Origin: Nemertoderma westbladi
Taxonomy: Eukaryota > Animalia > Xenacoelomorpha
Length of the DNA: 64,000 bases
Reading direction: 5' to 3'
Assembly: GCA_032718475.1 (NCBI GenBank)
Contig: JAUCBJ010006452.1
Coordinates: 10,949-74,948 of the forward strand
Shown here: piece after piece, positions 7,617-47,525 of the stretch
Position numbering within the stretch: position 1 is the stretch's first letter
Layout of the letters: each line of letters starts with the position of its first letter
Notes under the pieces: model-generated
Databases searched by the model: none
What the model was told of the DNA's origin: nothing
What the model saw: the letters and a program-made list of their open reading frames with translations, nothing else
Translations under genes and position numbers: made by a program

Positions 7617-8393
7617 AATACGGCCCTTACATGCCAAAACCGTCTAATTCAAATTTTTTGAAAAATGACATATGCATATATTTGGAATCAGAAAAACGAG
7701 GCGCATCTTTGTAGTCAAGTCTTAAGACGTAATTATGAAGTCCTAAGGAGTTATATTTTTGCCAAAACCGGCTATCTCAACATCTGTCAATAATAGTAAA
7801 TCCCAAAACCATCTATCTTTACTTAGATTGATTTGGAATTAAACATTAAGTTTGGTTTTATTGTTTCCTTTATGCCGAAACCGTCTATCTGTGAATTCTA
7901 GTCTATCTGTGTATTCTGTCTACTTGTATTCCGTTGGATTCAATATCTAATAATTTTTCATTTTTAATTTACCAAAACAGTCGAGTCTATCTCTATGATC
8001 TACAATACAATAATGACACTAAACTTGCCTTATAGCCTACAATTATGTTTTTACTAGTATCTAGTTTTACTAGTTTCCTAAAATGTAATGGGCTATCCAA
8101 CATCGCAAACGCCATTTATATAGCTACAGTATGATTGTTTTCGTGCCATGGTAACGCTCTGACACCCATCTCCAGTATTTTTCGTGCTAAAATTTTCAAA
8201 AGTTTTTATGACTAACTAAAATAAATTTTATGACCTTTATTAAAAATTTTGATTTTTTTTGGAGTGCTGATCACGAATGTGACACTGAAATATATCGCAC
8301 ATTGTTGATTATGGCATTTTTAGAAATGTGTCAATGTGCGGCACGAAAAATATAAATGTAGAAAAATTTGTTAATCAAAAATCATTACTAAAT

Positions 8394-9600
8394 TGTTCGC
8401 GCTTTCAGACCTTTGGCAGTTTAACCCGCCAAATTATGATGTCTTCTAGATATTAAATCGCTTTTTAGCCTATGACAAGTATTTGATTCACTACACTAGT
8501 CGAAACCAATCTGTGCGCGATCATTCACCCGCTGGATATACCCGGGGGATTGGGTTCGACGGTTTAATCTTATTGCTATGTAAGCCTAACGTATTATTCG
8601 ACTGACAGTATTATATAATCTCTGACAATATTATTCACCTTCGGGGAATATTAACAGTTCCTTTAGGACGTGGCGCTCTATCCATATAAACAGAGTTATG
8701 ACTTAAACTACTCACAACGATATGGCTTAATTATAATTCACATATATGGCGCATTCTTTAGGAAATGCTTCTTTAACAGACTCACTCATACACAATGCTG
8801 CACAATACTGCACATTAATCCGCCGATCTTCACTGATTTTAGTCACATATAAAAGGAACACCGACTGACTCATGTAGGGTCTATCAAATAACATTAGATT
8901 CACTTCAAACCACTTTAACATAAGTCACAATCGATATATGTAACCCTTCTCTCTTACCTTCGGTATATCAAGAATATTGGGTTTCGGGGTTGTTTCTCGT
9001 TATTCCAAATATAATAATTCATCCACAAATATAATGAATAACCGACAGCAAAGCAGTAATGTTAAGTTAAGTTGCACAGTATGGGCCAATTAACCAGTTT
9101 GTTTTGAGTTAAGACAATCAGCAATTAGTTTGCGAGTGATTCGTTAGTTAAAGGATATATGTCCTTATAATTAAACCTACTAGTGTGAAGCTAAAAAGCA
9201 TAAAAGCACAAAACACTACAAAGCCGTTCTTTCGTGGCTTTGAAAAACTCGTGACTACTACTCTATACGAGGATACCAACTACCCTTATTCCACGAAGCT
9301 CCCGTTCAACACAGAGAAAGAGCAGTGAGATAGGAAAATTTCAGTTCAGTAGCTCTGTGATAGGTCAAAATCAAAGCTAACTCAAATTCTATTGGGAGAT
9401 ACAAAAACAGGGCTATGACGCAACCTCCCTAGGCTGGTTGTCCGATTAAACAGAGCCCAGTTACCTGCTTACAGCAAATCAGCCAATAAGCTGGTAGCTT
9501 GCACTATTTTAGTTATAGATCCCCTTTAGAGTATTCTAGCGACCGGGGGGGAACTGGCCAGCAAAGCAAACGAACCAGTTATCCCACAAAAGCTTTTACA
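8394..9600 (-). repeat. 3' LTR of family B (1207 bp)
   Basis: TG...CA ends. About five substitutions relative to 25746-26952 were seen by eye. Confidence 0.96.
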
Positions 9601-9678: not shown

Positions 9679-11568
9679 TTAGTCTTTCTTGCGCGGACGG
9701 CGTTTACGCAGTTTCTTGAGGCTAGCAAGAGTCCTTTTCTCTTTGGGGCGAGCCACTTTATGAGGAGGGCTGTAGCTCCTAGGTGAAGGGTGCAATACAA
9801 TTGCATCAGAAGGTGTAGGGTTACGATCGGTATACCCGCCGGTCGAAGTACCTGGTTGATTAATATCAACCTCAGTGGAGCGAGGTCTAACGGTCTCTAG
9901 AGCGCGTCTCAGGACAGCAGCTCCTACGGGTCCCTGACGGGTCGTCTGGACACTAGCGGTGGGTGGACCGTGAGTGGTAAGGAACTTTCGCGGTTTAATG
10001 GTTCTCTCCAGCTTGCGTTCTCGGGTTTGATATTCATATGGGCGCCGAGATACTTCCTGGAGTTCAGGATGCGAGTTCACAAAAATGTCGCCATACTCAG
10101 GGTCCTGACGGATAAAATTGATCAGGTGATATGTAGTTATATCATTAGGGTTGACGTTTCTAAGGTATTTTCTGACAAACTTGGTGGAAATACACTCACC
10201 AACACGCTTCATTAACTCGTAACTGGGTACGCATGTTTTCTGTTCAATCGACGCAAATAGGTAAGGATGGAACTCGTAAACTCCCTCGTAAGCTCGTCCA
10301 GGGTAATAGCGATGTCTGGATTCGCAATGTAAATCTGCGTTTGCTTCCCAAGCTCGAATGTATCGCAGGGTGATCATTTCGTCTACGCTCTCTAAATCGC
10401 GATTAAAGGGACAATTGTAACTTTCATGTCCTTTAAGTTGACAGTAGTGACATTGAGTCATAAATTGTGGGCAGAAGGCAAAAATATGAGAGTTATTAAG
10501 TCTGCAATAAGCACAATATATTTCCATCATCGGTTGTTCGAGGAAATAGGAGCAAGGTGCGTTGGAGTCGAGAGGAGTGAAGTGGTCTCTCGATGCGCAT
10601 AATCGACAACGTTTTCGAGAAACGTAGTTGGCGTGTCGATAATCGTACGCTGTGAGACGTTGTGGACCTTGATACCACTCTATGACATAATCATTGTCAC
10701 TGCTCCGGGAAGCTGTAGGCTGAATCGCTTCTGATTCCAAGCATACTGGCTCATCCTCCAGCTGCATAGACGAAGTGGGTGCGTCTGTTTCCGTAAGTGG
10801 ACCCACTGTCTGTATTTCCACGACAGAATAACCTATAGGTATTCGAGGTCTTTGTATAACCGATGAATGTAAGTTCTGTATACAAATTTCTTGAAAAACG
10901 GCAAATCCAGCGCTACTCAGTTTCTCAGCAGCTGAGTCTCTCAGACTGAGTTTGGTCAGCGCGCGGTCCTTGAACTGACTATCAACGTTACGGAACGGAG
11001 TCAGGAAGCGCCGGAAACATTCAAAACGTATAAACTTATTGTGTTCGTCTAACTTGGCGAGTTTAGTTCCAAGTATCAATGGGTGAGCGCGTATGGTACG
11101 ACTGCACACATCGGCTAGCCAACCGGCAAGTGCTGCGTTTTCAAAGATCGTGCATATAGCTAAGGAAGGACGAAGTGGAACACTCATAAAGCTATACACG
11201 GCACCAGGCGCAGTTAATGGTCCATCGAAATATAAACGAGAGTAATGATCTCCATATACTTGCTGGTAATTGATAGGATTTCCAACCTTGAAATTCCAAC
11301 CATATTCTTGAAAGGCAAGATGTCCGATGGATGTCCGTTGTACTTTAGTAATGCCGCAGGGGGTATTGGCATACATAGTGCGAAAGAAACCTCGGCCTTC
11401 GGCCCAAGGAGCAATCAGCTGAGTATCAACGAAAGGGTATGGAATGTTCTCCATATTCCGGAAGTCGTTTTGGAGGTCTCCATAAACAGCTGAGCCGATT
11501 TTTAGAATTCTTTCGTTAAACAACATTTCGAGTACAGGTTGGGGTAACATTGATCCATCGATACCCAT
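9679..11568 (-). CDS. Accessory ORF, C-terminal part: DEDDy/RNase D-like 3'-5' exonuclease-like domain plus triple zinc knuckle and basic tail
   Basis: LPQPVLEMLFNERILKIGSAVYGD...FVDT resembles the WRN/EXD/Mut-7 Exo II region. Knuckles are CRLCASRDH..C, CAYCRLNNSHIFAFC and CHYCQLKGHESYNC. The C-terminus KKLRKRRPRKK is NLS-like. Confidence 0.75.
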   Translation of the reverse strand: MGIDGSMLPQPVLEMLFNERILKIGSAVYGDLQNDFRNMENIPYPFVDTQLIAPWAEGRGFFRTMYANTPCGITKVQRTSIGHLAFQEYGWNFKVGNPINYQQVYGDHYSRLYFDGPLTAPGAVYSFMSVPLRPSLAICTIFENAALAGWLADVCSRTIRAHPLILGTKLAKLDEHNKFIRFECFRRFLTPFRNVDSQFKDRALTKLSLRDSAAEKLSSAGFAVFQEICIQNLHSSVIQRPRIPIGYSVVEIQTVGPLTETDAPTSSMQLEDEPVCLESEAIQPTASRSSDNDYVIEWYQGPQRLTAYDYRHANYVSRKRCRLCASRDHFTPLDSNAPCSYFLEQPMMEIYCAYCRLNNSHIFAFCPQFMTQCHYCQLKGHESYNCPFNRDLESVDEMITLRYIRAWEANADLHCESRHRYYPGRAYEGVYEFHPYLFASIEQKTCVPSYELMKRVGECISTKFVRKYLRNVNPNDITTYHLINFIRQDPEYGDIFVNSHPELQEVSRRPYEYQTRERKLERTIKPRKFLTTHGPPTASVQTTRQGPVGAAVLRRALETVRPRSTEVDINQPGTSTGGYTDRNPTPSDAIVLHPSPRSYSPPHKVARPKEKRTLASLKKLRKRRPRKKD

Positions 11569-11625
11569 GGCCGGTTTGCGCTCGGTGTCGGTGACGTAAC
11601 GCTGCGCGAGCTCGAATTGTCCATG

Positions 11626-13389
11626 TCAAAGTTTCTTTTGTATCTCCATAAGAGTTTCAAAAGAATAATCAATCACGTCGGAACACGCTCGAGTGAATAC
11701 GTGGGTAGAACCAGCAAGTCCTCGTATATGTATCATTCGCGTGGTTCCTAATTCTCCCACCGGAACGCTACCTTTGTTGTCATAAGTAACAACGCCATAC
11801 ATCTCGATAACGTTAAGAGTCTCGTTCCATTCTTTAGTGGCGTTTTCGAGAGTCATTCCCACTGGATGCCATAAAGTAGCGCACTCATTAGCATTGGGTA
11901 AATCTCTATACTTTAAGCATTGTGTAGTATAGGTTTCCACATCTCCATATCTTTTTACTCTTTCTTCCTCGAATAACACGTCAAGATTCCAGTGCACTAA
12001 TCGAGTTTTAATGAATCCATCAAGATTGTACGGAGGTGATGTTTCTTTCTCTATTCTAGAAATATTATACGGTTTTCGAAATGAGTTTAATTTAACTAGC
12101 TGATCTAGATGTTTTTGTAGTTGTTCGAGTTCGACAAGATCGAGAGGATTGATTAATGGTAGGAACCTCAGACTATGCGTAGGATCTTCCGGTTTCACCA
12201 TGTAATATTGCTTCAAATTGACGTAATAAGGGTGATCCTTAATTCCATAAAATGAGTCCGGCAAAGGTCTAGCGCGTATGTTAACATCGTGCACCATGCG
12301 ACGGACAAGATCCGCTCTATTGTCCGGAGGCTCAACAAGTACGCCATCGACACGAGCAGCCTCGACGGGTGGACGTTGTAGCATGGGAGCGTCAGCAACG
12401 AGCTCGTGAGATCTGAGATCAGTATTAACCGGTTGAGGCTGTACCGTAGCAAAGAGCTTGTCTTTAAACTGAGGAACCATCAAGGGGTGGAGGATCGTTT
12501 TGGAATAGAGATCCGTCACTAGAATTTGAACTTCTGGTTGGGCTAAAGCTGCTTCTTCCCTCTCAGTCAGCTCCATATGTCTCTCCTCGAGCTGATTTTC
12601 CTCCGCTTGTTGTTGCAAGCGCTCGTCCAGGAATTCCTGTAAAGAGTAGGTTCGTCCACGTTCTATGTCCTCCTCTAGATTTTGTATTTCTCTATCGAAC
12701 TGGGGTAAAGCTAGTTCTTTCACCGCTTGGACTTGTTGTTGCAATTTACGTTTCTCCAAGCAATCGTAAGTTCCTTTTCCAATTTTCTGCCGAATAGCGT
12801 CTAATGCATTTCGTATCACGCTCTCTTCGACTTCTGTAACAGGTTGGATCGGAGGAAGGCCAGGACGGTTGTAGGGGTTAAACGGTGATATTAGATGACC
12901 GCGTCCTAGTCCAGCGAGGTAAGGTTGGCGAATAGCAAACAAACCCACTACCGGAGTGCCACCAATCAACTGTTCAGGTAACACTAGATCTTTGAACAGT
13001 GAGTACAGTTCGGGAGGATCCGTAATACTATTAGGATCTAGAGTTTGAGGTATCACTTGGGAATGGGGAGGTCTGACCGAGTATTCCGGAACTCTGATCA
13101 TGGGTTTATTCAATGATCGCTTAAGGCGCGCGACCGTAGGTGATACGTCGAAAAGGTTACGCTCGAAACTCCCATAAGTATATCGTGTAAAACTGTGTTT
13201 AGCACAACGTCTCCGAGGATGTTTATGCCTTTCGATTTGCTGGTTAGGTCTAGGGCATTCATCACAGTAATACCAAAGACGCACATCTTGAAGGGGAAAA
13301 GCGGGTGATCGCTCTCCAGTTTTACAATATTCCTCCATCTGTTCGAAGCTATCTGGAACGACAGGTAGCACGTTTATCAGGTTCTTCAA
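11626..13389 (-). CDS. Accessory ORF, middle part (coiled coil; ends with Exo I-like VVTYDNKG); in frame with 9679-11568 across a single TGA
   Basis: 587-aa ORF. The sequence reads CTT TGA CAT GGA...GCC ATG GGT, giving 19 open codons in the same frame up to the next ORF. Confidence 0.7.
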   Translation of the reverse strand: MKNLINVLPVVPDSFEQMEEYCKTGERSPAFPLQDVRLWYYCDECPRPNQQIERHKHPRRRCAKHSFTRYTYGSFERNLFDVSPTVARLKRSLNKPMIRVPEYSVRPPHSQVIPQTLDPNSITDPPELYSLFKDLVLPEQLIGGTPVVGLFAIRQPYLAGLGRGHLISPFNPYNRPGLPPIQPVTEVEESVIRNALDAIRQKIGKGTYDCLEKRKLQQQVQAVKELALPQFDREIQNLEEDIERGRTYSLQEFLDERLQQQAEENQLEERHMELTEREEAALAQPEVQILVTDLYSKTILHPLMVPQFKDKLFATVQPQPVNTDLRSHELVADAPMLQRPPVEAARVDGVLVEPPDNRADLVRRMVHDVNIRARPLPDSFYGIKDHPYYVNLKQYYMVKPEDPTHSLRFLPLINPLDLVELEQLQKHLDQLVKLNSFRKPYNISRIEKETSPPYNLDGFIKTRLVHWNLDVLFEEERVKRYGDVETYTTQCLKYRDLPNANECATLWHPVGMTLENATKEWNETLNVIEMYGVVTYDNKGSVPVGELGTTRMIHIRGLAGSTHVFTRACSDVIDYSFETLMEIQKKL

Positions 13390-13771
13390 CGTCTTCTCTT
13401 TCGAGTTTGTTTCGAATAGAGTTCTCGTGTTCTATTCTCGATTTATCGTTTCGACTCCGCTGGGTATGATATTTAAATAAAACCATTTCCCTTTTGGTGT
13501 CTACATCGTCCGTATCGTGTAAATCGATAGGGTGACCAGTAGTCAAGAAGTCCATATACATACCATTACGATGCGTATAGCGAGCCGTGAACTTTCTATA
13601 ATCCAATTCACGCGTAAGTTGCTCCTGGGACATTGGCGGTTCGATATAACAACCATTGTCCTCCGTAGTAGTTGGATCAGCGTCGCCGCGTATCAAGCTA
13701 TCAACAAACGCTTGAAAAGGTAGAGTATATCTCTCCCTGATACCAAGATCATCTTCTATTAATTCAGTCAT
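13349..13771 (-). CDS. Accessory ORF, N-terminal part (140 aa), overlapping the next ORF in the +1 frame
   Basis: ATG preceded by GCAG-AT. A homologous degenerate copy lies at 48440-48888. Confidence 0.65.
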   Translation of the reverse strand: MTELIEDDLGIRERYTLPFQAFVDSLIRGDADPTTTEDNGCYIEPPMSQEQLTRELDYRKFTARYTHRNGMYMDFLTTGHPIDLHDTDDVDTKREMVLFKYHTQRSRNDKSRIEHENSIRNKLEREDVEEPDKRATCRSR

Positions 13772-15403
13772 ATCTGCTATACGAGTTCACCAATATTATA
13801 ATGAGTTTATATATTGTTAGGCGAGCGGGCGTCGCTGCCTATTTCTCCCGTGCCCCCAGACAGTAAGAGATTCTCAGCGCCGATGTACCGCTGTAGCTGT
13901 ACTTTCGCCAACGACGTAGCTGTACAACGACAACGATAACCGGCACAAGTCACTCCACTGTCCGTCCCAAAGGCTTAGATGTACTTCAGGTTTTCCTTGG
14001 AGAGTTAGGTTACTTTCACGATTGCGACTAGCTACTGTAAACACACTTTAGCAGTAACATTCACCTATAAACTCACAAATACCACACAACTTGTCACAAC
14101 TACACACATTCGGGCCATTTGTCCGTTAGTCAATGCCTTCCAGAATGTCACTGTATTGTTATGTTTCCTTGGATACTAGCAGTGCACTATTTATTCCCTA
14201 TGCTATTCAATGGGACAAGCTTTCTATTGTTCTTTTAACTCAATTCTAATTCTAGCGTGGTTTTTGCTATGTGACATTATGTAAAGCTAGCGGTAGAATT
14301 AGGGTAATTCCAATGCATACAGATCTGGGATGTTATTTAATAGTAATTCTTTAATAGTCAATGTCCTGTTTTATACATGACTTTATGAATTTTATCGGCT
14401 ATTGACTATGTTTGGGAGACTTTCATACACGCATACGCATAATAATATAAATCTCCGCTCCCTTGATCTATTAATTAATGGAATTTTGGGAATGTTATAA
14501 ATTGCGTAAAATGGCAATTTATTAAATTCATTAAAAGACATGAATTTAAATTTATTCCCTGAAATTTTATTATTTGATAATTAAATTGACATATTTTGAT
14601 TCCAGAACATCCTTAATTCTATGGAAATTGTCCTTTTAAGAATATCGGTAAATGCGACGATATCTTAATTGACTAGAATTGTTGAAGGATCTGAATTTTA
14701 CAGATTTTGACTTATTAGATTTGCAAATATTAAATAATTAATATTTGAGATGGGCACCGATTTATTCCAGAACTTGTCTGGGGACGTTAACCACTGATTC
14801 TATAATTTGTCTTTCAAGTATATCGGTGGGTGCCACGATATCTTAATCGACTAGAATTACAGATGGTCAAAGGGTTTAACAGATTTATTTTGCGTTATAC
14901 GCTACTGTTAAAGGGACATCACGCTACTATATGTATTATTTAATATACGGTATGAGAGCAATATCGCACGAAGCAATGTCAGTGTGAAGAGGCAAGTCGT
15001 TTCCAAGGTCTACCCAGAGCTTGGTTTAGCCGAGACACGAGGATCTGAACTTTGCATTCCTAATACTCTGCCTACCAATAATACTTAAATATAGTAGTGG
15101 CTTTATTGTACTTTAATAAGTACGGACATTTCATCTTACTGTAGTTACGTATTTATAATATAATACGGACAGTAAGGAAGAGAAAAAATAATTATTTCTT
15201 CGCCGTCTCACTAAATATAATATAAGTAATTACGTACGTAATAAACACGAATATATTGCACTATTCTACTAAATAATCGCTAAATAATATTCTACTAAAT
15301 TAAATAAAACGATTATAATAAAATTACATAGTAATACATACATAAAATATAAAATAATAAAATAATATAAAATAATAGAGTCACACGCCCACTCCGAACG
15401 ATA

Positions 15404-18400
15404 TTAAGTTGGGGAGCCCCTAGATGTCGGTTGAATTAGGGAAGTGGTCGTGGGAAGAGTTTCTTGCCTTCCATAGTTTCCGGAGAGCTCTCTGTCTCTT
15501 TCCAGTAAACATAAACGACCCACTGGGCGGTTGAGCTGTTGAGTCTCAAAGACTATCCCTGGTTTCTTAAAGTTACGACGCATGACGACGAGTTCTACTG
15601 ATCGCACTAAGCCATCGCTCGAGATATAAGTCTCGATGATTCGTCCTGTTTGCCATCGCTTACGTGGGAGATCGGGGTCCACAATAAGCACCATGTCTCC
15701 AGTGCTGACGTTTTCTTGCTGCGCAAACCACTTAGTTCGAAGTTGTAGAGTGGGCAGGTAATGTTTCTCGAAATGGTCAGCGAAATGACGGGATAGCAAC
15801 TGCATAAGTTGCCAGGTTCGACGGCAGTACTCGTCTCCGTCGGTGATCTCCGATTGTGGGAGCATGGCTACGGGCTTCTTCAGCAGAAAGTGCGCGGGTG
15901 TTAGCGCTTCCAGGGAATCAGGATTTGAAGAGACTGGCATAAGCGGTCTTTCGTTGAGATAGGCGGCGATTTCCTCCATTAACGTCCGCAATAATTCGTC
16001 GGTGAGATAAGCGCGACAAGGCACAACAAAGTGGAACGCAGTCTTCACGCTCCTAATCAATCTCTCCCAACTTCCTCCCCACCAAGGGGCGTCGGCGGCA
16101 TTGAAGGTCCAGCTAGACGCTGTTATCTTTAGCTGATTGTCCACCTGTCTTCCGTTCCAGTCCTTTATGTAAGCTTGAATTTCGTTGTTGGCGCCAATGA
16201 AGTTCGTTCCCTTATCCGATCTCATCGTGTTACTGGTTCCGAAGCGAGCGATCTGTCGTCGTAAACTCAACACGAAGCTGTTGGTGGATAGATCGTTTAC
16301 CATATCGAGATGGATAGCTCTACAAGTCATACAAACGAAGATGACACACCATCTTTTGACTATAGTCCAGGCACGATATACTTCAATAGGGCCAAATAAA
16401 TCCACACCGGTATTAGTAAAGGGTGGTTCATAGAAGCTTACTCTTTCCCTAGGTAATTCTGCCTCTCGCTGTGTTAAAGGCCTACTGAATGCTTTCCTAC
16501 AGGGTATGCAGTTCCTAAGAACTTGGTTCAGAGCCCTACGGGGTTTATAAAAATAGTAGCGAGTTCGAATTTCGCTCAGAACTCTTTCTCTACCAGCATG
16601 GTACAGTTTGCTATGAACATCTACAATTATCTTGATTTGTATGTCAAGATTTCTAATGAGGATGGGAAACTTAGTGTCAAAGGATAATGGGGCGTTAGTT
16701 AGCCTACCTCCAACACGTATTAATCCATCTATCATGGTACTAGAGAAGCGATCCCTTAAGCGCATCTGCGGATTTCTTAACAACAGGAAATACTTATCGG
16801 AATCCTTATAGCATTGTAGGAGTCTTAGCATCTGTTTGTTGGTTTCATCATGCTCCTGGTAACTGATCTTCTCCGTTAGAAACCTGTCGGTTATCTTGTA
16901 CTTTGGAAGATCTTTAACAGCATGTACTCGTGCAGATGTTGATGGAGCATCATCACTATTGGTCTTTGTCCCGGAGTAACGATGATGAAAACATCGTTTC
17001 AAATAAGTAACAGCTTTACAAAGCCGATTCCAGGAACTGTAGTGACGTATCGCTCTCTGCAAGAGAGGTGAGAGTCCTTGCGAGATATCTGGTATTCCAG
17101 ATTTCCAATCCTTGTCACGGATTTCCAAGATTTCTTTGGTCGTAGCAGTGGGTTTCTGATCCAAAGCATCCTCTCCGGAAGTAAATAATACAGATAGATC
17201 AACCGCAGGTTTAAACAACTTCGATTTACTCGCTCGAGTTTTGGGTTTAACTTTCTCCGCTCCCTTGGCCTGTCTGATCTCTGCTGTTGTGAGATGGGGA
17301 GGCCATTCCTCTTCTTCTCGGTAGAGAAAGTCAGGTCCTCCTAACCATTCGGGAGTATTTACCAATTCCTTTGGAGTTGCTCCTCGGGAAGCGATATCCG
17401 CTGGATTAATCGTTCCGGGGCAATGTCTCCATTGATCCATCGTCGTGCGACTAAGTATGATGGCTACTCTGTTGGTAACGAAGACGCTGAACTGACAGAC
17501 TTCATTGGTTATATACTCTAACACGAGTAAAGCGTCGGTCCAATAGACAGTTTTCTCTAAGGGATAGTCAATCTGTTCTGTTACATTCCGGCCGATGGCT
17601 GTAGCGTATAGAGCCGCCTTTAACTCCGCTCGAGGAACTTTCAACTTGTTGTTGATTAATGCCTTAGAAGTAACCAAGGCGACTTTGATTCCATCCGGAG
17701 TTTCCACTCTTAGATAGGCTACTATACCTATTCCCATATCGCTGGCGTCTCCAAACACATGGAGTTGATAGGAATACGTAGGGAGAACATGACCAAAATA
17801 TGAACGGGAAATTATAAAATCCTCGATAGCAGGTAGGGAATCTTCCCATTTCATCCACTTCTTCAATAATTCTCCCTTAAGTGGATCGTCCCATGAGTGG
17901 TTTTCAAGCCACATTTGTTGTACCAAACTACGAGCAATCAATATAACTGGGCTAATAAATCCCAATGGATCGAAATAAGTGCTCAGTATACTTAAGCAAA
18001 TCCGTTTGGTTCGAACGGGATTATCTCGCTGTTTTAGTTGGAAAAACAGGATATCTCTCTCTGTGTCCCATTTCAAGCCGAGTGTCTTGGTTTCTGGCAG
18101 ATCATCTTTGATCAAATCGAGATCTTTCGCTCCTCGATCTTCCGCAGGGATCGACTCCAGAAACTCACGGGAGTTGCTGGTGAATTTCGTTAATCTAAAC
18201 CCACCTCTTTTTAAGCACTCTACCGTTCCTTTTGCGACCTCAATGGCTTCTTCAACTGATGGAAGGGACTTCAGATTGTCGTCCATGTATATGTCTCGCT
18301 TGATGTTGTCGATCACTTCCTTAGAGAAGGCCTCTCGGTTGTCTTCTGCAGTGGCACGCACTACTGAACAGGCGTTGGAAGGGCTTGAGATTATCCCAAA

Positions 18401-21400
18401 GGCCTGGATGGTCATCCAGTACTCCACCGGTTGCTGGTTGAGGTCTCCTTCGGGCCACCATAGAAATCGTAGGCTATCTCGATCCTTATCCAACACTTTG
18501 ACTTGCAAGAACATGCCTTCTATATCGGAGGCGAAAGCAATCGAATATTGTCTCAATCTTAAAAGAATTCCCAACAAAGATTGAAGTAAGTTGGGTCCGG
18601 GTAACAATTCAGAGTTAAGGGATTGACCCATGTAAAGAGCGGAGCCATCAAACACTACTCTCACTTCGTTTGGTTTACCGGGTTTAGGAACGTAATGGTG
18701 AGTTAAGTAATACGTTCTTTCAGTCACAGGTGTTTCTTCCGGTACCCTCTCCGCGTATCCCTTATTAATAAATTTTTCCAGCTGTGTTTGATACATTGCT
18801 TTAGCTGAAGAATTAGCCGTAAGGCGTCGATGGAGTTGCGCGATTCTTTTTTCCGCCAAAGGTCTATTATTGATGAACTTCGGTTCTCTCTTGCGGAAAG
18901 GTAAACCAACTTCATACCTACCTTGATCTTTGAGGAAACGTGTAGTTGTCTCTTGGATCTGCTTGGCCCTTTCCTCTTCCACCGATAATGCTTTATCGTA
19001 GGAATTGGGCTCTACCGCCTCTTGCGTAAAGAATCGGACAGCATGTTCATCTCGAGTCTTGGCATTATGACGCTCAATGACGTCATTTAACTCGTCGTTA
19101 TAAGCTTCTTGTTCAGATGGATAAAGAAGTTGACATAAGTTCACTTGGTTTTGCCAAGCCTCGTTTTCCTTAAGGAGATCGATGATATTCTCCTCATCAA
19201 AAAGCTGGTGAATGTCGTCGTTATCTGAGGAGTATGGAGTTCCCTCAGTTAAATCGTCTCCTTCACTAGTATCATCTTCCCATTCACTCACCTGGCAGAC
19301 TCGCTCTTGCGGTAATCTTTCTCTGAGTGTTCTACGGGAAGGGCCAGTAAAGTACCAACCTACTCTAGTTCTTACCGCATAGGTCTGTAGTGGCTGCGGT
19401 TGAGCAGGCCGTTTCTCTAATGTCTCCAGCGCCTCATGCGCGTTTTGGCCGATGAGTATTTGCACTCCAGGATAATCAGTCGGGAATCGAGGTATGTTAA
19501 GATGTTGGATGCTCTCATCCTCATCCCAATTATAAAGGTCTGCTTGAGTAGTAGCGAAGTTCTTTATAGCCACCATTTTCACTGACCTTATGCTATGTTC
19601 TCCTAGTTCGTCCTGGGGGGTGGACAACGCTCCTAAATAATAATCTGCTGTTATTGTAGATTTCCAAACTTGCATGATTCCGGACATGTTTAGCTTGGTT
19701 CGGAACTTGGGTTGTCCATTGAATATGTCTTCGGCTAGTTCTTTATCAATGAATGTTCCTGTGCTGCCGGAATCCAGGAGGGCGTTCACCACACAACTCC
19801 GTTCAGGCCCGTGTACCCTTACCTGCACCACAGGAAACTCTCGGATCCCTACATTGGAAGATGGCTCTTTCCAAGATGGTTGTCTTTCAGAAGTAGTTAG
19901 GGTTAGGTCGCTGTCTGTGTCTTTTTCATATGTGAGTGCTCGATACACTGCGGTATTTATCATGTAACAGGATTCGTTTTCGTCGGAGAACTCATCCGTG
20001 TAGAATCCTTCCATCTCAGATTGATCAGTGTCGTTCACATCACTGAATTGGACATGTAGTTCGGAATCACTTACCTGATTCGGACTATTTCGCTCGAATT
20101 CAGCGTGCAACAAGATATGATGTTTCGCACCACACTTTGCACACCTTAGGTCAGAAAAACAGGTTCGCCGTTGGTGTCCTTGTCTGAGGCAATTATAACA
20201 TAACCGCTTATCCCACATAACTTCACGTCTCTCAGTTAATGATTTCTTTAGAAATTCATCACACATATTCAAACGGTGGGTCCCGTCGCATAGCGCACAT
20301 TTCGGTTTGATGTTACTTACCTTATTCTGAGTCACATTGTGTACACTCGCCTTTTCTTCGGGCTTTCTCACCTGAATTCTCTTGGGAGACGTAGGAGGAG
20401 TTTTTCTTACCTGTTCTCTCCTGTCATTTGTTCGAGACTTAAATTTACTCACCTGATCTTTAGGCATTTTATTCACGTAATAAGATCTCTCAGTGTCCTT
20501 CCCGCTATCTTCTCCCTGAGAAGTCGGGCTTTCGCCGTCGTCTGTATAACACACTGGTGTTATCTTTCTCCTAGAGACGGGTTTTTCACTTACCTTGTTT
20601 TCCGGTGTCTTCTCTCTGGATTGCTTGAGGAGTTGCAATTTCACTTCTCCATCCAGGAATGACATGAGATCAGCCATGGTAGGGTCTCGTCGCTGTTGTT
20701 CCATCATATATAGTACTTTCTTATCCCAGCGTGTGCCTACCCCACCTTTCGGTAAAGTAGAAGCCACAGCTCCAATGACCATAGAACTTTGGTATTCATG
20801 AGACTTACCTAACCAATCTAATTGTCTACAGATCTCTTGAATCTCATCGGAAAACTCTATTATCCCACTGCTGATGAACTTTCTGGGCGCTACTAATTTT
20901 GCATATAAATACTTGGCGATATTATTCCTATTACCATACCTGATGTTTAGTGTATCCCAAACTTGTCTTAATCCGTCTGGATGTCCAATAAACTTTAACG
21001 CCATTAATTTGGGAGATCCTTCCAAGCACTCGATGAGGAATCTAAGTTTCTCTCCATTATATAGGACAGAGTTCTGTATGTTATCTTTGTAATATTCATT
21101 AAAAGGTAACCATTTCATCTCATCTCCATTGAACTTGACGATCTCTCCCACCTTCACCGCTTGCCGGGCTTCGGTTCTAGCCATTTGACGCGTAAAACTT
21201 TCTTGGGCCATCGTGTTATTTAATATCGAGCTATCGGTATATAAATTTCTCGGATTATGATCAGTTCTATATGGGATATCATTATCAACAGGTCTATAAT
21301 TACCCTTAATAGGGTTCACTATAGGAGTTTCTACTTCGCTAGCAGTATAAATGCGTGTAGGCTCCACACCTTGCGCATGTGATACTTCAGACCTAACAGG

Positions 21401-23479
21401 TTGACATATTGTTACAAGGGGTGGTGGTATACCCCTTTGAATGTTCACTAATTTATCGCGCTCTAGCGCGATACTTTGCTGCACTTCTTGCAACTCTAGT
21501 CTACTTTCCCTTACTGTGCCCTTAAATTGTTGAACAGTCTCCTGCATCTGCCCGAGCAGGAGATCCACCCCCCGCCGTCTCTCGTCCACCCATTCGACCG
21601 CCGAAGCGGGAGTCGCCAACGTTGTAGCGGGCGGACGAGGGACAACGGGCCACAAATTATGAATGTTTCGCTCGGGGTCCAGGACCTGAACTGTCTCCTG
21701 GGCAGTTCTACGGGGCACAGGTAGCTTAGTGCTATGCAGAGGGAATTTAGAGGTAACTTCAGGGAGTACAGGTGTGTCTATCACCGAAGGGGTGATTTCG
21801 AGAACAGGCCTAATTATTTCAGGCTCATCTACTATAGTAGGGAGTCTTTCTATTTTAATTATTTGGTCTGTGGGCTCTGTACTACCTAAATTGTTGTTAT
21901 TTAGTTGCCTTCTAACAGCTGGAGGCAAATCAGGCAATTTCTGACGGTGGAATGTTCTTTTACGTCTACTTAGACGAGATCTATTTCCCTTGCCTTTAGT
22001 ATCAGTGGTATCGCCTTCCTCAGATGATGTATAACCCTGTCTTTTGGGAGTAGATCGACTCATCATCTGCATATTACTAGCTGTTAACTGTTTATTTATG
22101 CAGTCTTGATTCTCTTGAAGATTTTCCAACTCCAGTTGGGTGATCTCTTCCGCTGCTCTCCGTTCTGCTTCCGCCACCGCTGCCGCTTTTGCCTCTGCCG
22201 CTGCCGCCTTTGCCTTTACCTCGGCTTCTGCTGCTGCCGCTTTTGCCTCTGCCACGGCTTCTGCCAAGGTCGCTTTTCTTTCTGCCTCTGCCACGGCTGC
22301 TATCTTTCTGTCTTCTATACGTTTTTTCCTTACTTGTTCTTCCTTTTCTCTAGCGATGCGGAGTTGTTCATCGAATTTAGCTTGATTCGCCGCTAACCTA
22401 TCTACATCTATTGCATCCAACACACGCTGGGCTCCTTCACTATTAGGGCTAAGTCCATCTAGCCTTCTCCTCAACTCTTCATCTCCCAAAAAACGCTGAT
22501 AGTCGTCAATATAGATGTCAATGGCATCCCTCTTATGCGGTTTCTCTGCCGTCGCTTCACTTTCCGCTTGGAAAAAAGTAGCGTCCGTTGATTCTCCATG
22601 GGTTGAGCGCTCCTCCAACTGAGCTTTCCACTGAGCTGCTCCTTGAACCTGGCGATTCACTCGTTGAAACCAAGTCTTTACGGCAACTTGCAACGACGTG
22701 TCTTGTCTTCTTTTAGAAGCCTCTTCAAAGGCTGATAAGATTAGCCTAATTTGCAGAACTCTTTCTCTAACTTGATAAAGCAGCTGTCCCTGCTCTTGAG
22801 GTCCTTGAGGTTGTTGTAACAGTTGTTTTTCTACTCGCTCCATAGAGCTGAAGAATCCTTGTGCGTATCCGGCTGCAGACCTCTTCCATACAGCTGGATC
22901 GATGGTTTCCTTGGCTACTCCCATCCGGTGTATGTCTTCCCAGGCAGCTTCTGATAAATTAAACGGGAGTCCGGGTCCGGGGAAGTTCCATTGCAACTCG
23001 ACAATAGACTTCAGTTCTTCCCTCGTGTATCCCGCATAACTATCTCTAGTTGATCGTTGACTTCTCGCCCAATCGATCTGGTGTTCTTCCACCGCGATCA
23101 ATAACCTAGTGAGCACGGCTGCAGGAAGGATGAGAAGGGGATCCGAATAAACCGCATCCGTTATCTCTGCTCCGCACTCGGGTTTCAGCTCTACAGTATC
23201 CTCACTACTGGAGCTGTTGGGCCGCTGAGAAATAAGTTCCCGGCTCGCGGGTTTTCGCTGTTCCGCTGCTTCTTGGTCCCGCTTGACCTGAGCTCGAGTG
23301 CCTATGATAGACCTACGATGTTGGACTAGCCTAGGTTCGGTTATTACTACTGGAGGGATGACCTTCCTCACAGTGGGAGGTGAACTGGACTTACGACCAG
23401 ACGGTTCTACATCTCTATCTGAGTCGCAGATCGTTACATCTAATAAACTGTCTGACAGGTTCTGCTTAGTATCAGACAT
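15404..23479 (-). CDS. BEL/Pao Gag-Pol polyprotein (2691 aa)
   Basis: Gag FNGDEMKWLPF with a triple CCHC, protease LLDSGS, RT YMDD, RNase H FGDAS/PRAEL/WTD, integrase HHCC plus GVDLFGP/SDKGTNF/WGGSWERL. Order is PR-RT-RH-IN. Confidence 0.97.
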   Translation of the reverse strand: MSDTKQNLSDSLLDVTICDSDRDVEPSGRKSSSPPTVRKVIPPVVITEPRLVQHRRSIIGTRAQVKRDQEAAEQRKPASRELISQRPNSSSSEDTVELKPECGAEITDAVYSDPLLILPAAVLTRLLIAVEEHQIDWARSQRSTRDSYAGYTREELKSIVELQWNFPGPGLPFNLSEAAWEDIHRMGVAKETIDPAVWKRSAAGYAQGFFSSMERVEKQLLQQPQGPQEQGQLLYQVRERVLQIRLILSAFEEASKRRQDTSLQVAVKTWFQRVNRQVQGAAQWKAQLEERSTHGESTDATFFQAESEATAEKPHKRDAIDIYIDDYQRFLGDEELRRRLDGLSPNSEGAQRVLDAIDVDRLAANQAKFDEQLRIAREKEEQVRKKRIEDRKIAAVAEAERKATLAEAVAEAKAAAAEAEVKAKAAAAEAKAAAVAEAERRAAEEITQLELENLQENQDCINKQLTASNMQMMSRSTPKRQGYTSSEEGDTTDTKGKGNRSRLSRRKRTFHRQKLPDLPPAVRRQLNNNNLGSTEPTDQIIKIERLPTIVDEPEIIRPVLEITPSVIDTPVLPEVTSKFPLHSTKLPVPRRTAQETVQVLDPERNIHNLWPVVPRPPATTLATPASAVEWVDERRRGVDLLLGQMQETVQQFKGTVRESRLELQEVQQSIALERDKLVNIQRGIPPPLVTICQPVRSEVSHAQGVEPTRIYTASEVETPIVNPIKGNYRPVDNDIPYRTDHNPRNLYTDSSILNNTMAQESFTRQMARTEARQAVKVGEIVKFNGDEMKWLPFNEYYKDNIQNSVLYNGEKLRFLIECLEGSPKLMALKFIGHPDGLRQVWDTLNIRYGNRNNIAKYLYAKLVAPRKFISSGIIEFSDEIQEICRQLDWLGKSHEYQSSMVIGAVASTLPKGGVGTRWDKKVLYMMEQQRRDPTMADLMSFLDGEVKLQLLKQSREKTPENKVSEKPVSRRKITPVCYTDDGESPTSQGEDSGKDTERSYYVNKMPKDQVSKFKSRTNDRREQVRKTPPTSPKRIQVRKPEEKASVHNVTQNKVSNIKPKCALCDGTHRLNMCDEFLKKSLTERREVMWDKRLCYNCLRQGHQRRTCFSDLRCAKCGAKHHILLHAEFERNSPNQVSDSELHVQFSDVNDTDQSEMEGFYTDEFSDENESCYMINTAVYRALTYEKDTDSDLTLTTSERQPSWKEPSSNVGIREFPVVQVRVHGPERSCVVNALLDSGSTGTFIDKELAEDIFNGQPKFRTKLNMSGIMQVWKSTITADYYLGALSTPQDELGEHSIRSVKMVAIKNFATTQADLYNWDEDESIQHLNIPRFPTDYPGVQILIGQNAHEALETLEKRPAQPQPLQTYAVRTRVGWYFTGPSRRTLRERLPQERVCQVSEWEDDTSEGDDLTEGTPYSSDNDDIHQLFDEENIIDLLKENEAWQNQVNLCQLLYPSEQEAYNDELNDVIERHNAKTRDEHAVRFFTQEAVEPNSYDKALSVEEERAKQIQETTTRFLKDQGRYEVGLPFRKREPKFINNRPLAEKRIAQLHRRLTANSSAKAMYQTQLEKFINKGYAERVPEETPVTERTYYLTHHYVPKPGKPNEVRVVFDGSALYMGQSLNSELLPGPNLLQSLLGILLRLRQYSIAFASDIEGMFLQVKVLDKDRDSLRFLWWPEGDLNQQPVEYWMTIQAFGIISSPSNACSVVRATAEDNREAFSKEVIDNIKRDIYMDDNLKSLPSVEEAIEVAKGTVECLKRGGFRLTKFTSNSREFLESIPAEDRGAKDLDLIKDDLPETKTLGLKWDTERDILFFQLKQRDNPVRTKRICLSILSTYFDPLGFISPVILIARSLVQQMWLENHSWDDPLKGELLKKWMKWEDSLPAIEDFIISRSYFGHVLPTYSYQLHVFGDASDMGIGIVAYLRVETPDGIKVALVTSKALINNKLKVPRAELKAALYATAIGRNVTEQIDYPLEKTVYWTDALLVLEYITNEVCQFSVFVTNRVAIILSRTTMDQWRHCPGTINPADIASRGATPKELVNTPEWLGGPDFLYREEEEWPPHLTTAEIRQAKGAEKVKPKTRASKSKLFKPAVDLSVLFTSGEDALDQKPTATTKEILEIRDKDWKSGIPDISQGLSPLLQRAIRHYSSWNRLCKAVTYLKRCFHHRYSGTKTNSDDAPSTSARVHAVKDLPKYKITDRFLTEKISYQEHDETNKQMLRLLQCYKDSDKYFLLLRNPQMRLRDRFSSTMIDGLIRVGGRLTNAPLSFDTKFPILIRNLDIQIKIIVDVHSKLYHAGRERVLSEIRTRYYFYKPRRALNQVLRNCIPCRKAFSRPLTQREAELPRERVSFYEPPFTNTGVDLFGPIEVYRAWTIVKRWCVIFVCMTCRAIHLDMVNDLSTNSFVLSLRRQIARFGTSNTMRSDKGTNFIGANNEIQAYIKDWNGRQVDNQLKITASSWTFNAADAPWWGGSWERLIRSVKTAFHFVVPCRAYLTDELLRTLMEEIAAYLNERPLMPVSSNPDSLEALTPAHFLLKKPVAMLPQSEITDGDEYCRRTWQLMQLLSRHFADHFEKHYLPTLQLRTKWFAQQENVSTGDMVLIVDPDLPRKRWQTGRIIETYISSDGLVRSVELVVMRRNFKKPGIVFETQQLNRPVGRLCLLERDRELSGNYGRQETLPTTTSLIQPTSRGSPT

Positions 23480-24900
23480 GTTCGTGTGTACAGTTGAATG
23501 CCTACTGCTATATTACAGTCTGAGCAAGTCTAGTAATTCAGTATTAACTGCTAGCCTAGTAATTAATTACCGATACTGCTACTCAGTGCAGCGTGATATA
23601 TATATAATATATTAGAATACCGGTATACTTATAGTATATATAACTATATAAGTATTATTACAGATACAGACTAGGTTTATCTCAGAATACCGGTATAATT
23701 TTAGCACAAATATATGAATATATAATAGGCCTATCGGTAATACCGGTATACAGCTTACAGTTTGTAGTATATATAATTCTGGACTAGAATTAAGTACAAG
23801 TACCGGTATAATTTCAGCCTAAATTTATAGAAATAAAGATAATAGGCCTATCGTAAATACCGGTATATCAATTATTTTAAATAATTGAATTTCTGTACTT
23901 TAGGGTTACTTGGTTACTCTACTTACTTTATTACCGTTATTTGAGCAGTAGTCCAACTGATATTGAGACCTAATGGTTGTATGGTAGGCCTACTATTTAT
24001 AAATCGTTAGATTTGATTTACAATATATATATATACCCGTTTTAATGGGTTTTGTCAATGTTTGAAATAAATGTTATTATTTCTGGGGAGTAATCACTAC
24101 ACAAAGCGGTGCGCTTTCAGTGAAGTGTTACTTATAGGACACTAAAACAAATAATACTAATTTACCTAAGTTACTTAATACTACAAATTACGTACGATTC
24201 GGTGGTGATTACAATCTCTAAATAAACACAAAATTTTACAAAAAACACGAAACACGAATTTTCAGGGTAATTTTATAAGAAGTCTACAAACCAGCCTAAC
24301 AAAGGGTTAGAATCTGGTTACTACAACGGACAGGGTACTACGGTATTTGAAAATAATAAGTAGTAGTAAATACACTGCGTTGTCCAGATAGGAAAATACC
24401 ACCGCCTGACGACCTATGGCCGTATCGCTATAGGTACTACGTTATGTATCACGGAGTGTTCCTACCGAGAAGTTAATAGAGCTAATCGAATGTGCCTATC
24501 AACCACTTTACAACTCAAATATAATGCCTACAACAATTACTTTCGGAAAGCACTGTACACTAAACCCTAAATTAGGTACGAGTACTTGTACAACAGATAA
24601 TCAGTAGTTAAATATACTTGAACAGCTAAAAGAACCACGGCATCTGCTGGAGTAACCGATGCACAAAATCACCAGTCTTTACCTACGCCAAGCAGCCCGT
24701 GTAGTACCGGGGTTAATTTAACTATAACGGTATGTATAACAAACACAATTACTGTAGGAACAAACTTTGGGAATATGAATGTTGCGAATAATCGCATAAA
24801 CTCTGAATAATAAATATTACGCTACGCGTACAAACTACTCAAACAAAATGCAGACCAAATACCGACAGACTACTATCAAGCCTAAACAAACTATGGTATA

Positions 24901-25375
24901 TGCAGACTCCGAAATGATTAGGTAGTATGCGTTCTAACCCAGTAGTACGACTTATTCTTTAATTGGGGGTTTACCTTACAGCATTGGCTGCCCCTACTTC
25001 CTAACCGTACTTAATCGGACAGGTGCTCTACACACACTACAATCCATTCAGACCTAACAACAGCCAGACAACTATCCAGCCTACAAATTATCTAATAAAT
25101 ATTATACGCTACCTGTACAGACTTACACAAACAAAGTACAGACTAAACGATGGCAGACGACTCTCAAGCCTAAATAAACTACAGGACATGCAGACTCCGA
25201 AATGATTAGGTAGTATGCGTTCTAACCCAGTAGTACGACTTATTCTTTAGCTGGGGGTTTACCTTACAGCATTTGCTGCCCCTACTTCCTAACCGTACTT
25301 AATCGAACAGGTGCTCTACACGCACTGTAATCCATTCAGACCTAACAGCAATCAGACAACAGCTCAGCCTACAAA
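24901..25375. repeat. Direct repeat (period 288 bp) in the long 5' UTR of family B
   Basis: TGCAGACTCCGAAATGATTAGGTAGTATGCG... begins at 24901 and again at 25189. Confidence 0.85.
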
Positions 25376-25733
25376 TTGTCTGTACAATCTGATCAGGTTT
25401 ACACGCCTTCTGTTCAATACTGGCCTACTAACAAATAAAACTGACAGAAATAAGTAAGCTCCAAAAGAAACAAGGGGTGTACAGTCCCTAATCTCTTAAA
25501 CAGCCTACCGGTATACAACAATCAAGTCGAATAATACTAATGTACTTATACGGAAGTACCGGTTAGGACAGTTGGGCCTACGGACCTACAGAAGTACCGG
25601 TTCTGGAAGTTGGACCTACGGGCCTACGGCAGTACCGGTTCTGGCAGTTGGGCCTACTGACCTACTGAAGTACCGTTCAGGTTTACCGGTTGACCGGTAC
25701 TTTCAACTTTATTGCTTACTGCAATAAAGAAGC

Positions 25734-25745
25734 TATATCCTTTAA
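25734..25745 (-). promoter_or_regulatory. Non-tRNA primer-binding-site position of family B (TTAAAGGATATA), complementary to LTR 26500-26511
   Basis: Immediately follows the 5' LTR, has no TGG, and has an exact 12-nt complement inside the LTR. Confidence 0.6.
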
Positions 25746-26952
25746 TGTTCGCGCTTTCAGACCTTTGGCAGTTTAACCCGCCAAATTATGATGTCTTCTA
25801 GATATTAAATCGCTTTTTAGCCTATGACAAGTATTTGATTCACTACACTAGTCGAAACCAATCTGTGCGCGATCATTCACCCGCTGGATATACCCGGGGG
25901 ATTGGGTTTGACGGTTTAATCTTATTGCTATGTAAGCCTAACGTATTATTCGACTGACAGTATTATATAATCTCTGACAATATTATTCACCTTCGGGGAA
26001 TATTAACAGTTCCTTTAGGACGTGGCGCTCTATCCATATAAACAGAGTTATGACTTAAACTACTCACAACGATATGGCTTAATTATAATTCACATATATG
26101 GCGCATTCTTTAGGAAATGCTTCTTTAACAGACTCACTCATACACAATGCTGCACAATACTGCACACTAATCTGCCGATCTTCACTGATTTTAGTCACAT
26201 ATAAAAGGAACACCGACTGACTCATGTAGGGTCTATCAAATAACATTAGATTCACTTCAAACCACTTTAACATAAGTCACAATCGATATATGTAACCCTT
26301 CTCTCTTACCTTCGGTATATCAAGAATATTGGGTTTCGGGGTTGTTTCTCGTTATTCCAAATATAATAATTCATCCACAAATATAATGAATAACCGACAG
26401 CAAAGCAGTAATGTTAAGTTAAGTTGCACAGTATTGGCCAATTAACCAGTTTGTTTTGAGTTAAGACAATCAGCAATTAGTTTGCGAGTGATTCGTTAGT
26501 TAAAGGATATATGTCCTTATAATTAAACCTACTAGTGTGAAGCTAAAAAGCATAAAAGCACAAAACACTACAAAGCCGTTCTTTCGTGGCTTTGAAAAAC
26601 TCGTGACTACTACTCTATACGAGGATACCAACTACCCTTATTCCACGAAGCTCCCGTTCAACACAGAGAAAGAGCAGTGAGATAGGAAAATTTCAGTTCA
26701 GTAGCTCTGTGATAGGTCAAAATCAAAGCTAACTCAAATTCTATTGGGAGATACAAAAACAGGGCTATGACGCAACCTCCCTAGGCTGGTTGTCCGATTA
26801 AACAGAGCCCAGATACCTGCTTACAGCAAATCAGCCAATAAGCTGGTAGCTTGCACTATTTTAGTTATAGATCCCCTTTAGAGTATTCTAGCGACCGGGG
26901 GGGAACTGGCCAGCAAAGCAAACGAACCAGTTATCCCACAAAAGCTTTTACA
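25746..26952 (-). repeat. 5' LTR of family B (1207 bp)
   Basis: Near-identical to 8394-9600 and followed on the + strand by the TSD TAAAT. Confidence 0.96.
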
Positions 26953-27778
26953 TAAATCAACCTTATTTCCTGACATTAGGGGTTTTCTGAGAAGCTGATC
27001 ACAAATATGAGACTAAAAAATATCATATTATCCAACTAAATTAATTTTTTTGGCATTTGTAAGTTTTATGCTACAGTTGTATTTTTCGTCCCACCAGAGA
27101 AGCACTAAAAACAAAAGTTTCATTACCACTAAACATTTTTAACGAGTAGTTGTATCATGCATGATCAGCGGCCTTGAAAACCAATATTACCCAAACAATG
27201 GGAAAATTTAACCGTATGAAATTTTTGCTACTTCTACTTTTAATCCTGGGGTATCAGAAATACACCAAAAATTATGTTTGACGTACGAGAAACATTATTA
27301 CAGTAATAAGTTTCATCGTGATCAGAGACCTCAAAAACCCATATATCTTCGGAATTATCAAACCAAATACAACATATTTTTGTTTTCTAACCAATAACGT
27401 ATTAAAAAAGCCGGGCCAGATAAGAGTTTATATCTGAGATAGTCTGTTTTGGCACGTAAGAATGCCTAGAACTTCAGGTTAAACAACAAATTTATACATG
27501 CCAAAACAGACTAACTTTGAGATAGACTGTTTTGGCATATAAATGTCTAAGAAAACATAAAAGCAATTACGCTCTATCTCACATTACACTATGTAGATAG
27601 GAGTTTCAGTTAAAAATATGCTGTTCAAATAATTATATGACTATAACTTACCTAATGACATCATTTCACAGGATTTCCACCAATCAGGATTCAAATGACA
27701 AGCCTGGAATGTATTTTGCGTTTTTCTCAAAACTATGTAAAAATGAGATAGACGGTTTTGGCATTTAAGGGCCGAATA

Positions 27779-29700: not shown

Positions 29701-29761
29701 TATAAATTTGGCCATGGTGGATTACGACGTGCTGTTTTTTCATCAAAAGTTATTTCATCAA

Positions 29762-46177: not shown

Positions 46178-47447
46178 TGTACGCGCTTTTGTAGACCTTT
46201 AGCAGTTTAACCTGCCAAAATTTATATGTCTTTAATTGTTAAATTGACTTTAGAAGATGACAAAGATTTAACACAAAACAAACAAAAACATTAGTCGAAG
46301 CCAGTCGATGCGCGTTCATTCACCCGATGGTTACACCCGGGAGACTGGATTCGTATGCTTAGATTTATTGCGGTGAAGCCTACTGTATTATTCGATTGAT
46401 CACTAATATATAATCTCTGACAAGTATTATTCACTTTCGGGAAATATTAGCAGTTCCTTTAGGACGTGGCGTTCTACCTATGTAAACAGAGCTATGACTT
46501 ATACTAAACACAACGATATGGCTTAGAATTCAAGTATGAGACGCATTCTTTAGGAGATGCTTAGTTATCAGCCACAATCATACACACTACCGGTAACGCA
46601 CAATACTGCTCACTGGTATGCCGACAGTTACTGACTTTGATCAGGTATAAAGAGGAACACACTGGACTCATGTAGTATCTATTAAACAGCATTAGATTCA
46701 CTACAAACACAATAATATAAGTCGCAATTGTTGTATGTATCCTGTCTCTCTAACCTGTAGTGTATCAAGAATATTGGAAAATTTGGGTTGTTTATCGATA
46801 TTCTTCAACTAATAACATCCAACTAGACTGATACAAATAATCACAAACAGTAAAAGCAGTAAGACGGTAGGTTACGATATGATAAGTATGAATGAGTTGT
46901 TGTGATAAGATTGGACCGTGATTAGACCGTGGTTTGATAACAGTTATACTTTCTATAATCTAAGCCTACTAAGGTTCCTTCTAAAGTCTGAAACATAGAG
47001 TCATTCCAAAAGCCGATGTTCAGGCAATAGGAACGACATAACACACATACTGACTCGCCCAGCCTCGATCTGGAGAGTATCTCTTCAGAGAAAACGAAAA
47101 TCGCCCTGATTGGCCGTTAGGCAGAAACAAAGAAACCAGGTGTCCAATGAGGGCTCCTTCCACGTCATCAGCCAGCTGGGAGATGTCGTAATCGGAATTC
47201 TTCCCACGACATGGTGACAGAGAGAATGCCGCATTGCGGGTTTTGTACCTTGTTATGTCCGCTAAAGCACACATCCAGAAGAATCAACATTTATTTCCGT
47301 TAAAAACACCTATACATTACTTTGAGGGCCAGGGAATTAATTATATCCGTAAACGCGTTTACAGTAGGTTTTAGAGTATTTGAGCGCACGGGGGGAAAAC
47401 TGGATTGCGGAGCAAAGGAGCAGTTATATCCCATAGAAGCTTTTACA
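46178..47447 (-). repeat. 3' LTR (1270 bp), diverged homolog of the family B LTR
   Basis: TGTACGCGCTTT...GCTTTTACA followed by CCGCTCCCAGAAAAT, as at 9601. Confidence 0.9.
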
Positions 47448-47525
47448 CCGCTCCCAGAAAATGGGATTTAAGTCTATAAAATATACTAAATCACAGTTTC
47501 TAATATACGTAAATACTCTAAACAG

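Follow-up and report, generated by a model that had tools for sequence, protein, structure and literature searches.

BEL/Pao retrotransposons are described as tRNA-primed elements whose replication is poorly understood (PMC8742986). The element analysed here lies in a stretch of 64,000 nt from Nemertoderma westbladi (hereafter the window) and raises the question of what could prime minus-strand DNA synthesis when the bases following the 5' LTR are the complement of a segment of the LTR itself.

The element and its primer-binding site

The element, Family B of the initial annotation, is a complete LTR retrotransposon of 18,559 nt (18.6 kb) on the minus strand (26952-8394), and its 5' and 3' LTRs differ by 5 mismatches over 1207 nt. 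It is a young, intact BEL/Pao retrotransposon, and because it is recent and intact, some working primer must have existed. The features of the element and of a diverged relative in the same window, including the primer-binding site (PBS), the polypurine tract (PPT) and the target-site duplication (TSD), are as follows.

26953..26957, no strand: TSD, upstream copy, 5 nt, ATTTA
25746..26952, minus strand: 5' LTR, 1207 nt, TGT...ACA ends
26500..26511, minus strand: predicted self-primer segment, LTR nt 442-453, uninterrupted, from the sequence match
25734..25745, minus strand: PBS, 12 nt, directly 3' of the 5' LTR, exact complement of the LTR segment, without TGG
25707..25729, minus strand: predicted 9-bp hairpin just 3' of the PBS (minimum free energy only)
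23513..25733, minus strand: leader, 2.2 kb, with internal tandem duplications
15404..23512, minus strand: open gag-pol frame, 2702 aa stop to stop, with DUF1759, zinc knuckles, protease, RT, RNase H (Peptidase_A17), integrase and DUF5641
9679..13786, minus strand: extra frames after pol, predicted ORFs of 145, 601 and 648 aa
9601..9608, minus strand: PPT adjoining the 3' LTR directly
8394..9600, minus strand: 3' LTR, 1207 nt, with the second copy of the primer segment at 9159-9148
8389..8393, no strand: TSD, downstream copy, 5 nt, ATTTA
46178..47447, minus strand: 3' LTR of a diverged, 5'-truncated relative, with a changed segment at the equivalent place (46948-46937)
47448..53345, minus strand: remnant of the internal region of the diverged relative, with 81-92% identity in blocks

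The gag-pol frame scored above the Pfam cut-offs for DUF1759, Peptidase_A17, Integrase_H2C2 and DUF5641, and its protease, RT and RNase H motifs were identified by eye. Among the matches listed, all 120 gag-pol homologues contain PF05380 (BEL/Pao family), and the best named ones come from sea urchin, ribbon worms and sea cucumber with 33-38% identity. The 2021 ICTV profile of the Belpaoviridae gives an 18-nt PBS for tRNA-Arg or tRNA-Gly and a genome of 4.2-10 kb (PMC8742986), and the available part of the report on Achilles from the olive fly describes priming by tRNA-Tyr (PMC4580426). The element agrees with the profile in the TG...CA LTRs, the PPT, the gag-pol order PR-RT-RH-IN and the BEL/Pao Pfam domains, and its 1207-nt LTRs, PPT and 5-nt TSD correspond to those of BEL/Pao elements (LTRs of 0.2-1.2 kb with TG...CA, PPT and TSD). 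It departs from the profile in having no tRNA-type PBS and in its length of 18,559 nt versus 4.2-10 kb, which, with the extra frames, is nearly twice the described BEL/Pao maximum. Despite departing from the PBS description, the element was filed in the BEL/Pao lineage because of its Pol. The two long extra frames (601 and 648 aa), which share one reading frame with a single stop between them, had no match to Pfam, homologues or Atlas, and several Cys/His knuckle-like motifs are found in the last one. Since the diverged copy has part of the extra-frame region (82% identity), the extra frames appear to be a family trait.

The 5' LTR ends in GCGAACA and is followed by TTAAAGGATATA at 25745-25734. 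An exact TATATCCTTTAA is found at 26511-26500 and 9159-9148 on the minus strand, and at 25734-25745 on the plus strand. The complementarity between PBS and LTR begins at the first post-LTR base (offset 0) and ends after 12 nt. The initial annotation had claimed that the family is without a tRNA PBS, that the 12 nt after the LTR are exactly complementary to a site in both of its own LTRs and that the pairing starts at the first base past the LTR, all of which was confirmed; TGG is absent from the 146 nt after the 5' LTR. No tRNA genes were found in the window, and Rfam gave no match in 23500-27100. None of 300 dinucleotide shuffles of the LTR reached a 12-nt match, and the chance of such a match from base composition is ~3e-4 per LTR, or 2e-3 with six offsets allowed. 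When one mismatch was allowed, the window-wide count of 4 was not striking and was reached by 3 of 100 shuffles. The best match of the PBS across a GT-AG junction is only 7 nt, which indicates that the primer segment of this element is not split by an intron. Among the contigs of run X1 listed on LTR and leader, which show no RNA ends, the bin with the PBS is covered, 26401-26487 is bare and one contig exits the LTR at 26498. A search of metagenome contigs with the LTR-end pattern gave 0 matches, and viral contigs contained no relatives.

The diverged LTR (47447-46178) carries ATAACAGTTATA on the plus strand at 46937-46948. This segment has the same spacing from a TAGTAGG anchor common to both LTRs; the initial annotation had placed it at the equivalent position and predicted a co-varying PBS for the diverged subfamily. 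The homology to the element ends at 53345, and neither a 5' LTR nor a PBS of this relative was found within the window. An array of ~162-nt units, direct and inverted, is located upstream of its break-off (54765-55593). The leader of the complete element (23513-25733) contains a 288-nt duplication at 24808-25381 and short tandem units at 25549-25675. The window also holds, on the plus strand, at least two copies of a second retroelement family (1-5300 and 29700-39200) with an aspartyl-protease match at 34165-36375 and arrays of 36/73-nt units. An AT-rich frame cluster on the same strand (56165-63604), with an rve integrase at 58247-59365, presumably resembles Polinton/Maverick.

Primer-binding sites in related families

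Relatives were fetched with an RT-RNase H profile, and the best 79 of at least 519 confirmed stretches were used. These loci share 39-44% identity with the element. A long-range direct repeat was present in 36 of the 79 loci, and TGG is absent from most relatives with both LTR ends readable. Uninterrupted exact matches to the own LTR reached 5-9 nt in 12 of 14 relatives and began immediately downstream of a stretch of pyrimidines and an AG. For most relatives, the DNA shows the match in two parts, with a GT-AG segment that has spliceosomal signals between them; the initial annotation had missed that an intron splits the LTR site in most of them.

For a cleaned test, we used 13 families, each represented by one locus with both LTR ends, and allowed all GT-AG pairs in the LTR. 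The post-LTR bases pair with the own LTR over 10-15 nt in 12 of the 13 families; the LTR end of L042 was set by eye after its match had been seen, which leaves 11 of the 12 fully independent. Ten of the matching families do so only across a GT-AG junction and two without interruption, as in the window element. The longest match in 38 control stretches (3' flank, +60 and +120) was 9 nt. Nine of the ten best junctions use GTAAG as donor; in the remaining one, GTACGT ties with a weak donor. In the background, 20 of 569 GT sites are GTRAG. In the thirteenth family, L071, a 5-nt spacer separates the LTR from a TGG-type site (L071:56-80), and the own-LTR match is 7 nt. L070 is not of the tRNA type. 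The PBS thus co-varies with the LTR segment across families, with different sequences in different families, and this covariation supports the tRNA-independent priming that had been proposed from the window alone.

We compared three sister pairs. Upstream of the intron (18 nt) and downstream of it (11 nt), identity is 100/100, 100/91 and 78/100%, against 59, 60 and 55% within the introns. This is the pattern expected where an intron is flanked by exon ends under constraint. A poly(A) signal is found no more than 130 nt past the acceptor in 17 of 24 intron-bearing families, which would place the intron in R. In L066 and L067, the whole element is repeated head to tail with a 6138-nt period and LTRs in common, either as a tandem array or as an assembly artefact. 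In L016 (230-275), the LTR contains a trinucleotide microsatellite that directly follows the predicted primer end.

A blind scan, ignorant of the LTR ends, looked for a canonical intron with a complement of at least 10 nt across its junction, located 50-350 nt downstream after ACA or ATA. Such junctions were found in 30 of 79 loci on the element strand versus 2 of 79 on the opposite strand; the 30 include near-duplicates as well as L033, L051 and L058, which lie away from the LTR end and are background. The first scan had no distance rule and was noisy (33 versus 11 of 79), and the blind scan for uninterrupted matches gave no strand excess (17 versus 12 loci). We also assembled 32 representatives, window element included, with a match as the selection criterion; the match is split in 26 and whole in 6. 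Among the 31 related representatives, 26 have the primer segment split by a GT-AG intron. The match is most often 11 nt long (18 representatives), otherwise 10 (3), 12 (5), 13 (1), 14 (3) or 15 nt (2). The introns are 66-426 nt long, with 4-9 nt of the match before the junction and 4-10 nt after it. There are 27 different first 10-mers among the 32. A match of 10 nt is found in 25 of the 992 cross-family pairs, and in 22 of these the two families share a primer. It counts against the proposed priming that the window PBS also fits a chance 10-nt junction in L041. The PBS offset equals the PPT-to-LTR spacer in only 9 of 17 by eye, and both are zero in the window element.

The 31 related representatives contributed 27 rows to a tree of 45, which further contained 4 other loci and 13 named proteins. 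The element was placed in a 32-row group (support 93/86) together with all 27 self-matching families of the tree, and the TGG-type L071 fell outside. The closest relatives among the matches listed are only 45% identical to the element in RT-RNase H, its branch is long (1.79), its position within the tree is unsure, and the grouping does not prove a common ancestry of the priming mode. The intron-less state requires 5 changes on the tree, and L044/L076 (100/99) and L065/L070 (98/92) are sister pairs with and without the intron. Of the 28 labelled rows, 22 have the split state, and the split invariably falls at the primer. Repeated intron loss is therefore the simpler reading, although the tree by itself cannot separate gain from loss. 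MAFFT alignments of L044/L076 and L065/L070 gave no clean intron-sized gap, and we infer the loss from the tree and from the short flank likeness.

RNA start, folding and alternative primers

We consider it likely that the element primes itself with the 5' end of its own RNA. With the same likelihood, the 12-nt PBS taken from the own LTR would be primed by the first 11-13 nt of the RNA, folded back and cut as in Tf1, and the element would be an intron-less member of a lineage with splice-built primers. Transcription would start at the segment or 1-2 nt before it, at about 26512, placing the RNA 5' end at the primer segment or within 1-2 nt of it. By analogy with Tf1, the RNase H of the element would cut after the paired stretch (after 26500), and the RT would then extend into U5. 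Plus-strand synthesis is established to copy the primer in the case of tRNA primers, according to the available part of PMC7175516; here, it would rewrite the PBS from the primer in each cycle, which would account for the covariation and would make the PBS of intron-bearing families a DNA copy of the splice junction. A PBS that matches such a junction would be indirect evidence that the junction exists in RNA.

For the relatives, the sequence comparisons suggest that the tRNA primer of a large animal BEL/Pao lineage has probably been replaced by a spliceosome-built primer, consisting of a 4-10-nt first exon and the first bases of the next exon, with the PBS as the DNA record of the junction. 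Reverse transcription would then be gated by splicing of the 5' and not the 3' LTR copy, and intron-less elements would arise repeatedly on splicing of the 3' copy. That the splice-built primer is the rule in the lineage also seems to us a probable reading. The region would be inherited from the RNA 3' end, and survival of the intron would require either a 3' LTR copy that mostly escapes splicing or a primer that acts in trans. Once the 3' copy is spliced, the intron would be gone from both LTRs, which is the state of the window element. The demand for splicing of a 4-10-nt first exon while the 3' copy is spared counts against the scheme.

Folding predictions bear on the RNA start. When the fold was started at 26520, the helix formed across an 800-nt loop, and the predicted probability of helix pairs 2-10 was 0.96-1.0 with the RNA beginning at 26511-26513 and 0 with 26545, 26700 or 26952 as its first base. 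It counts against the proposal that the helix is not predicted when the RNA starts 34 nt or more upstream. The initial annotation had derived the primer either from cleavage of a fold-back or from the transcript end. Cleavage of a 5' fold-back fits better and the transcript end less, because the site is located 754 nt before the LTR end, LTR nt 1033 is the place of the sole poly(A)-like signal, and only RNA starts at or just before the site give a predicted helix. An upstream U3 hiding the site in intron-less families was considered and found unsupported (p = 0.11).

A candidate start site is the A that 23 of 32 rows, among them the window element, have 13 nt upstream of the primer end; three rows of this comparison are offset by one base. 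Two signals count against this start, and because of them the real RNA 5' end may differ. One is a TATAAG ~5 nt before the site, from which a TATA-driven start would fall downstream of it; the other, found in both window LTRs, is a pyrimidine-rich AG ~32 nt upstream of the segment. The primer would also end in AA, and those of most relatives in AC or AT, which likewise counts against it. The pyrimidine-rich AG of both window LTRs borders the most diverged LTR part (48% identity). A possible GT-AG pair is found upstream of the primer segment at 26824 and 26543 (LTR nt 129 and 410; nt 398 and 467 in the diverged LTR) and might mark an intron in that part or provide an acceptor for trans-splicing. 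A strong donor-like GTAAGAG is located in R/U5 at 26309 (LTR nt 644), and the diverged LTR has a changed version of it at the aligned place.

The own RNA might instead prime from the 3' LTR copy, from a second packaged RNA or from a short LTR-only transcript in trans. Both LTRs contain the segment, a trans primer would also account for inheritance of the intron from an unspliced template, and with a poly(A) signal within 130 nt past the acceptor in 17 of the 24 intron-bearing families, short spliced LTR transcripts could exist. We nevertheless consider this origin unlikely, since the pairing ends at ~11 nt in most families, as expected of a primer ending at the cap, no helix is predicted with the upstream U3 attached, and the sole poly(A)-like signal of the window LTR lies 580 nt beyond the site. 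A host RNA, such as a tRNA half, a tRNA fragment or another small RNA, could make the LTR match incidental or a masking structure. This would be in line with the host tRNA priming that ICTV gives for the family (PMC8742986) and with the half-tRNA priming known in some copia lineages from the available part of PMC6317226, but the 32 representatives have 27 different PBS starts, each matching its own LTR, and the window element has neither TGG nor an Rfam match in 23500-27100, making such a primer very improbable.

We give hardly any weight to the explanation that the match arose by chance, or is a leader fold with another role, and that the mechanism of the element is unrelated to that of intron-bearing families. 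The match is an AT-rich 12-mer in a single element on a long branch, and inverted matches of 12-14 nt arise by chance elsewhere in 600 kb of loci; at the fixed post-LTR place, however, the probability is at most ~2e-3, place and length are the same as in the relatives, and a recent, intact element needs some primer.

Known self-priming elements and implications

Priming by the RNA 5' end, the reading that we favour, has its closest precedent in Tf1. According to the available parts of PMC7175516, PMC4600332 and PMC5341516, Tf1 is self-primed by an 11-nt segment of its own LTR, with an RNase H cut between bases 11 and 12. The accessible text of PMC6317226, PMC6934838, PMC5443660 and PMC3601003 reports self-priming for Tf1/Sushi and Tcn1 and predicts it for TAR copia. 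In these partial sources, Tf1/Tf2 of Schizosaccharomyces pombe, Tj1, and Tf1/Sushi and Tcn1 among the Ty3/gypsy chromoviruses likewise have a PBS complementary to an own LTR segment. The 11 nt described for Tf1 are also the modal length in our set of relatives, and the Tf1-type PBS of ~11 nt of the own LTR beside the LTR end has its counterpart in the 12 nt at offset 0 of the element. An RNA 5' end at the segment, as in Tf1, is compatible with the predicted folding, and the RNase H motifs found by eye fit a Tf1-type cleavage as judged from the sequence. Tf1/Sushi belongs to Ty3/gypsy, whereas the element has BEL/Pao domains only and is without a chromodomain. Cleavage and start site were shown for Tf1 and are deduced by analogy for the element, and the available parts of the sources mention no primer intron in the Tf1 group. 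The element is likely to work like Tf1 in priming without being a member of Tf1/Sushi. The TAR lineage of plant Ty1/copia (Houba and Osr-1) is a second superfamily with self-priming predicted from sequence, and the available part of the source mentions no splice-split primer (PMC6317226).

Our literature search, with most subscription journals, Repbase reports and bioRxiv supplements outside its scope, found no account of BEL/Pao elements that prime themselves or make a primer by splicing. BEL/Pao self-priming is unmentioned in the available parts of PMC13524379, PMC3286476, PMC8220671, PMC554778, PMC3118150 and PMC12440569, and neither PBS nor tRNA occurs in PMC554778 and PMC3118150. The supplements of PMC13524379 contained neither the PBS of the element nor the TGG-type control string from L071.

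If the proposed priming is true, BEL/Pao would be the third LTR superfamily dispensing with a tRNA primer, and the splice-made primer would be a new twist that is absent from the literature found. It would account for such elements scoring 'no PBS' in annotation, and would presumably put them beyond the reach of tRNA-fragment defence. It would also offer a direct test of one intron that is spliced at the RNA 5' end yet kept at the 3' end. The window element shows that the intron can be dispensed with, so that sister families with and without it would provide a natural comparison.
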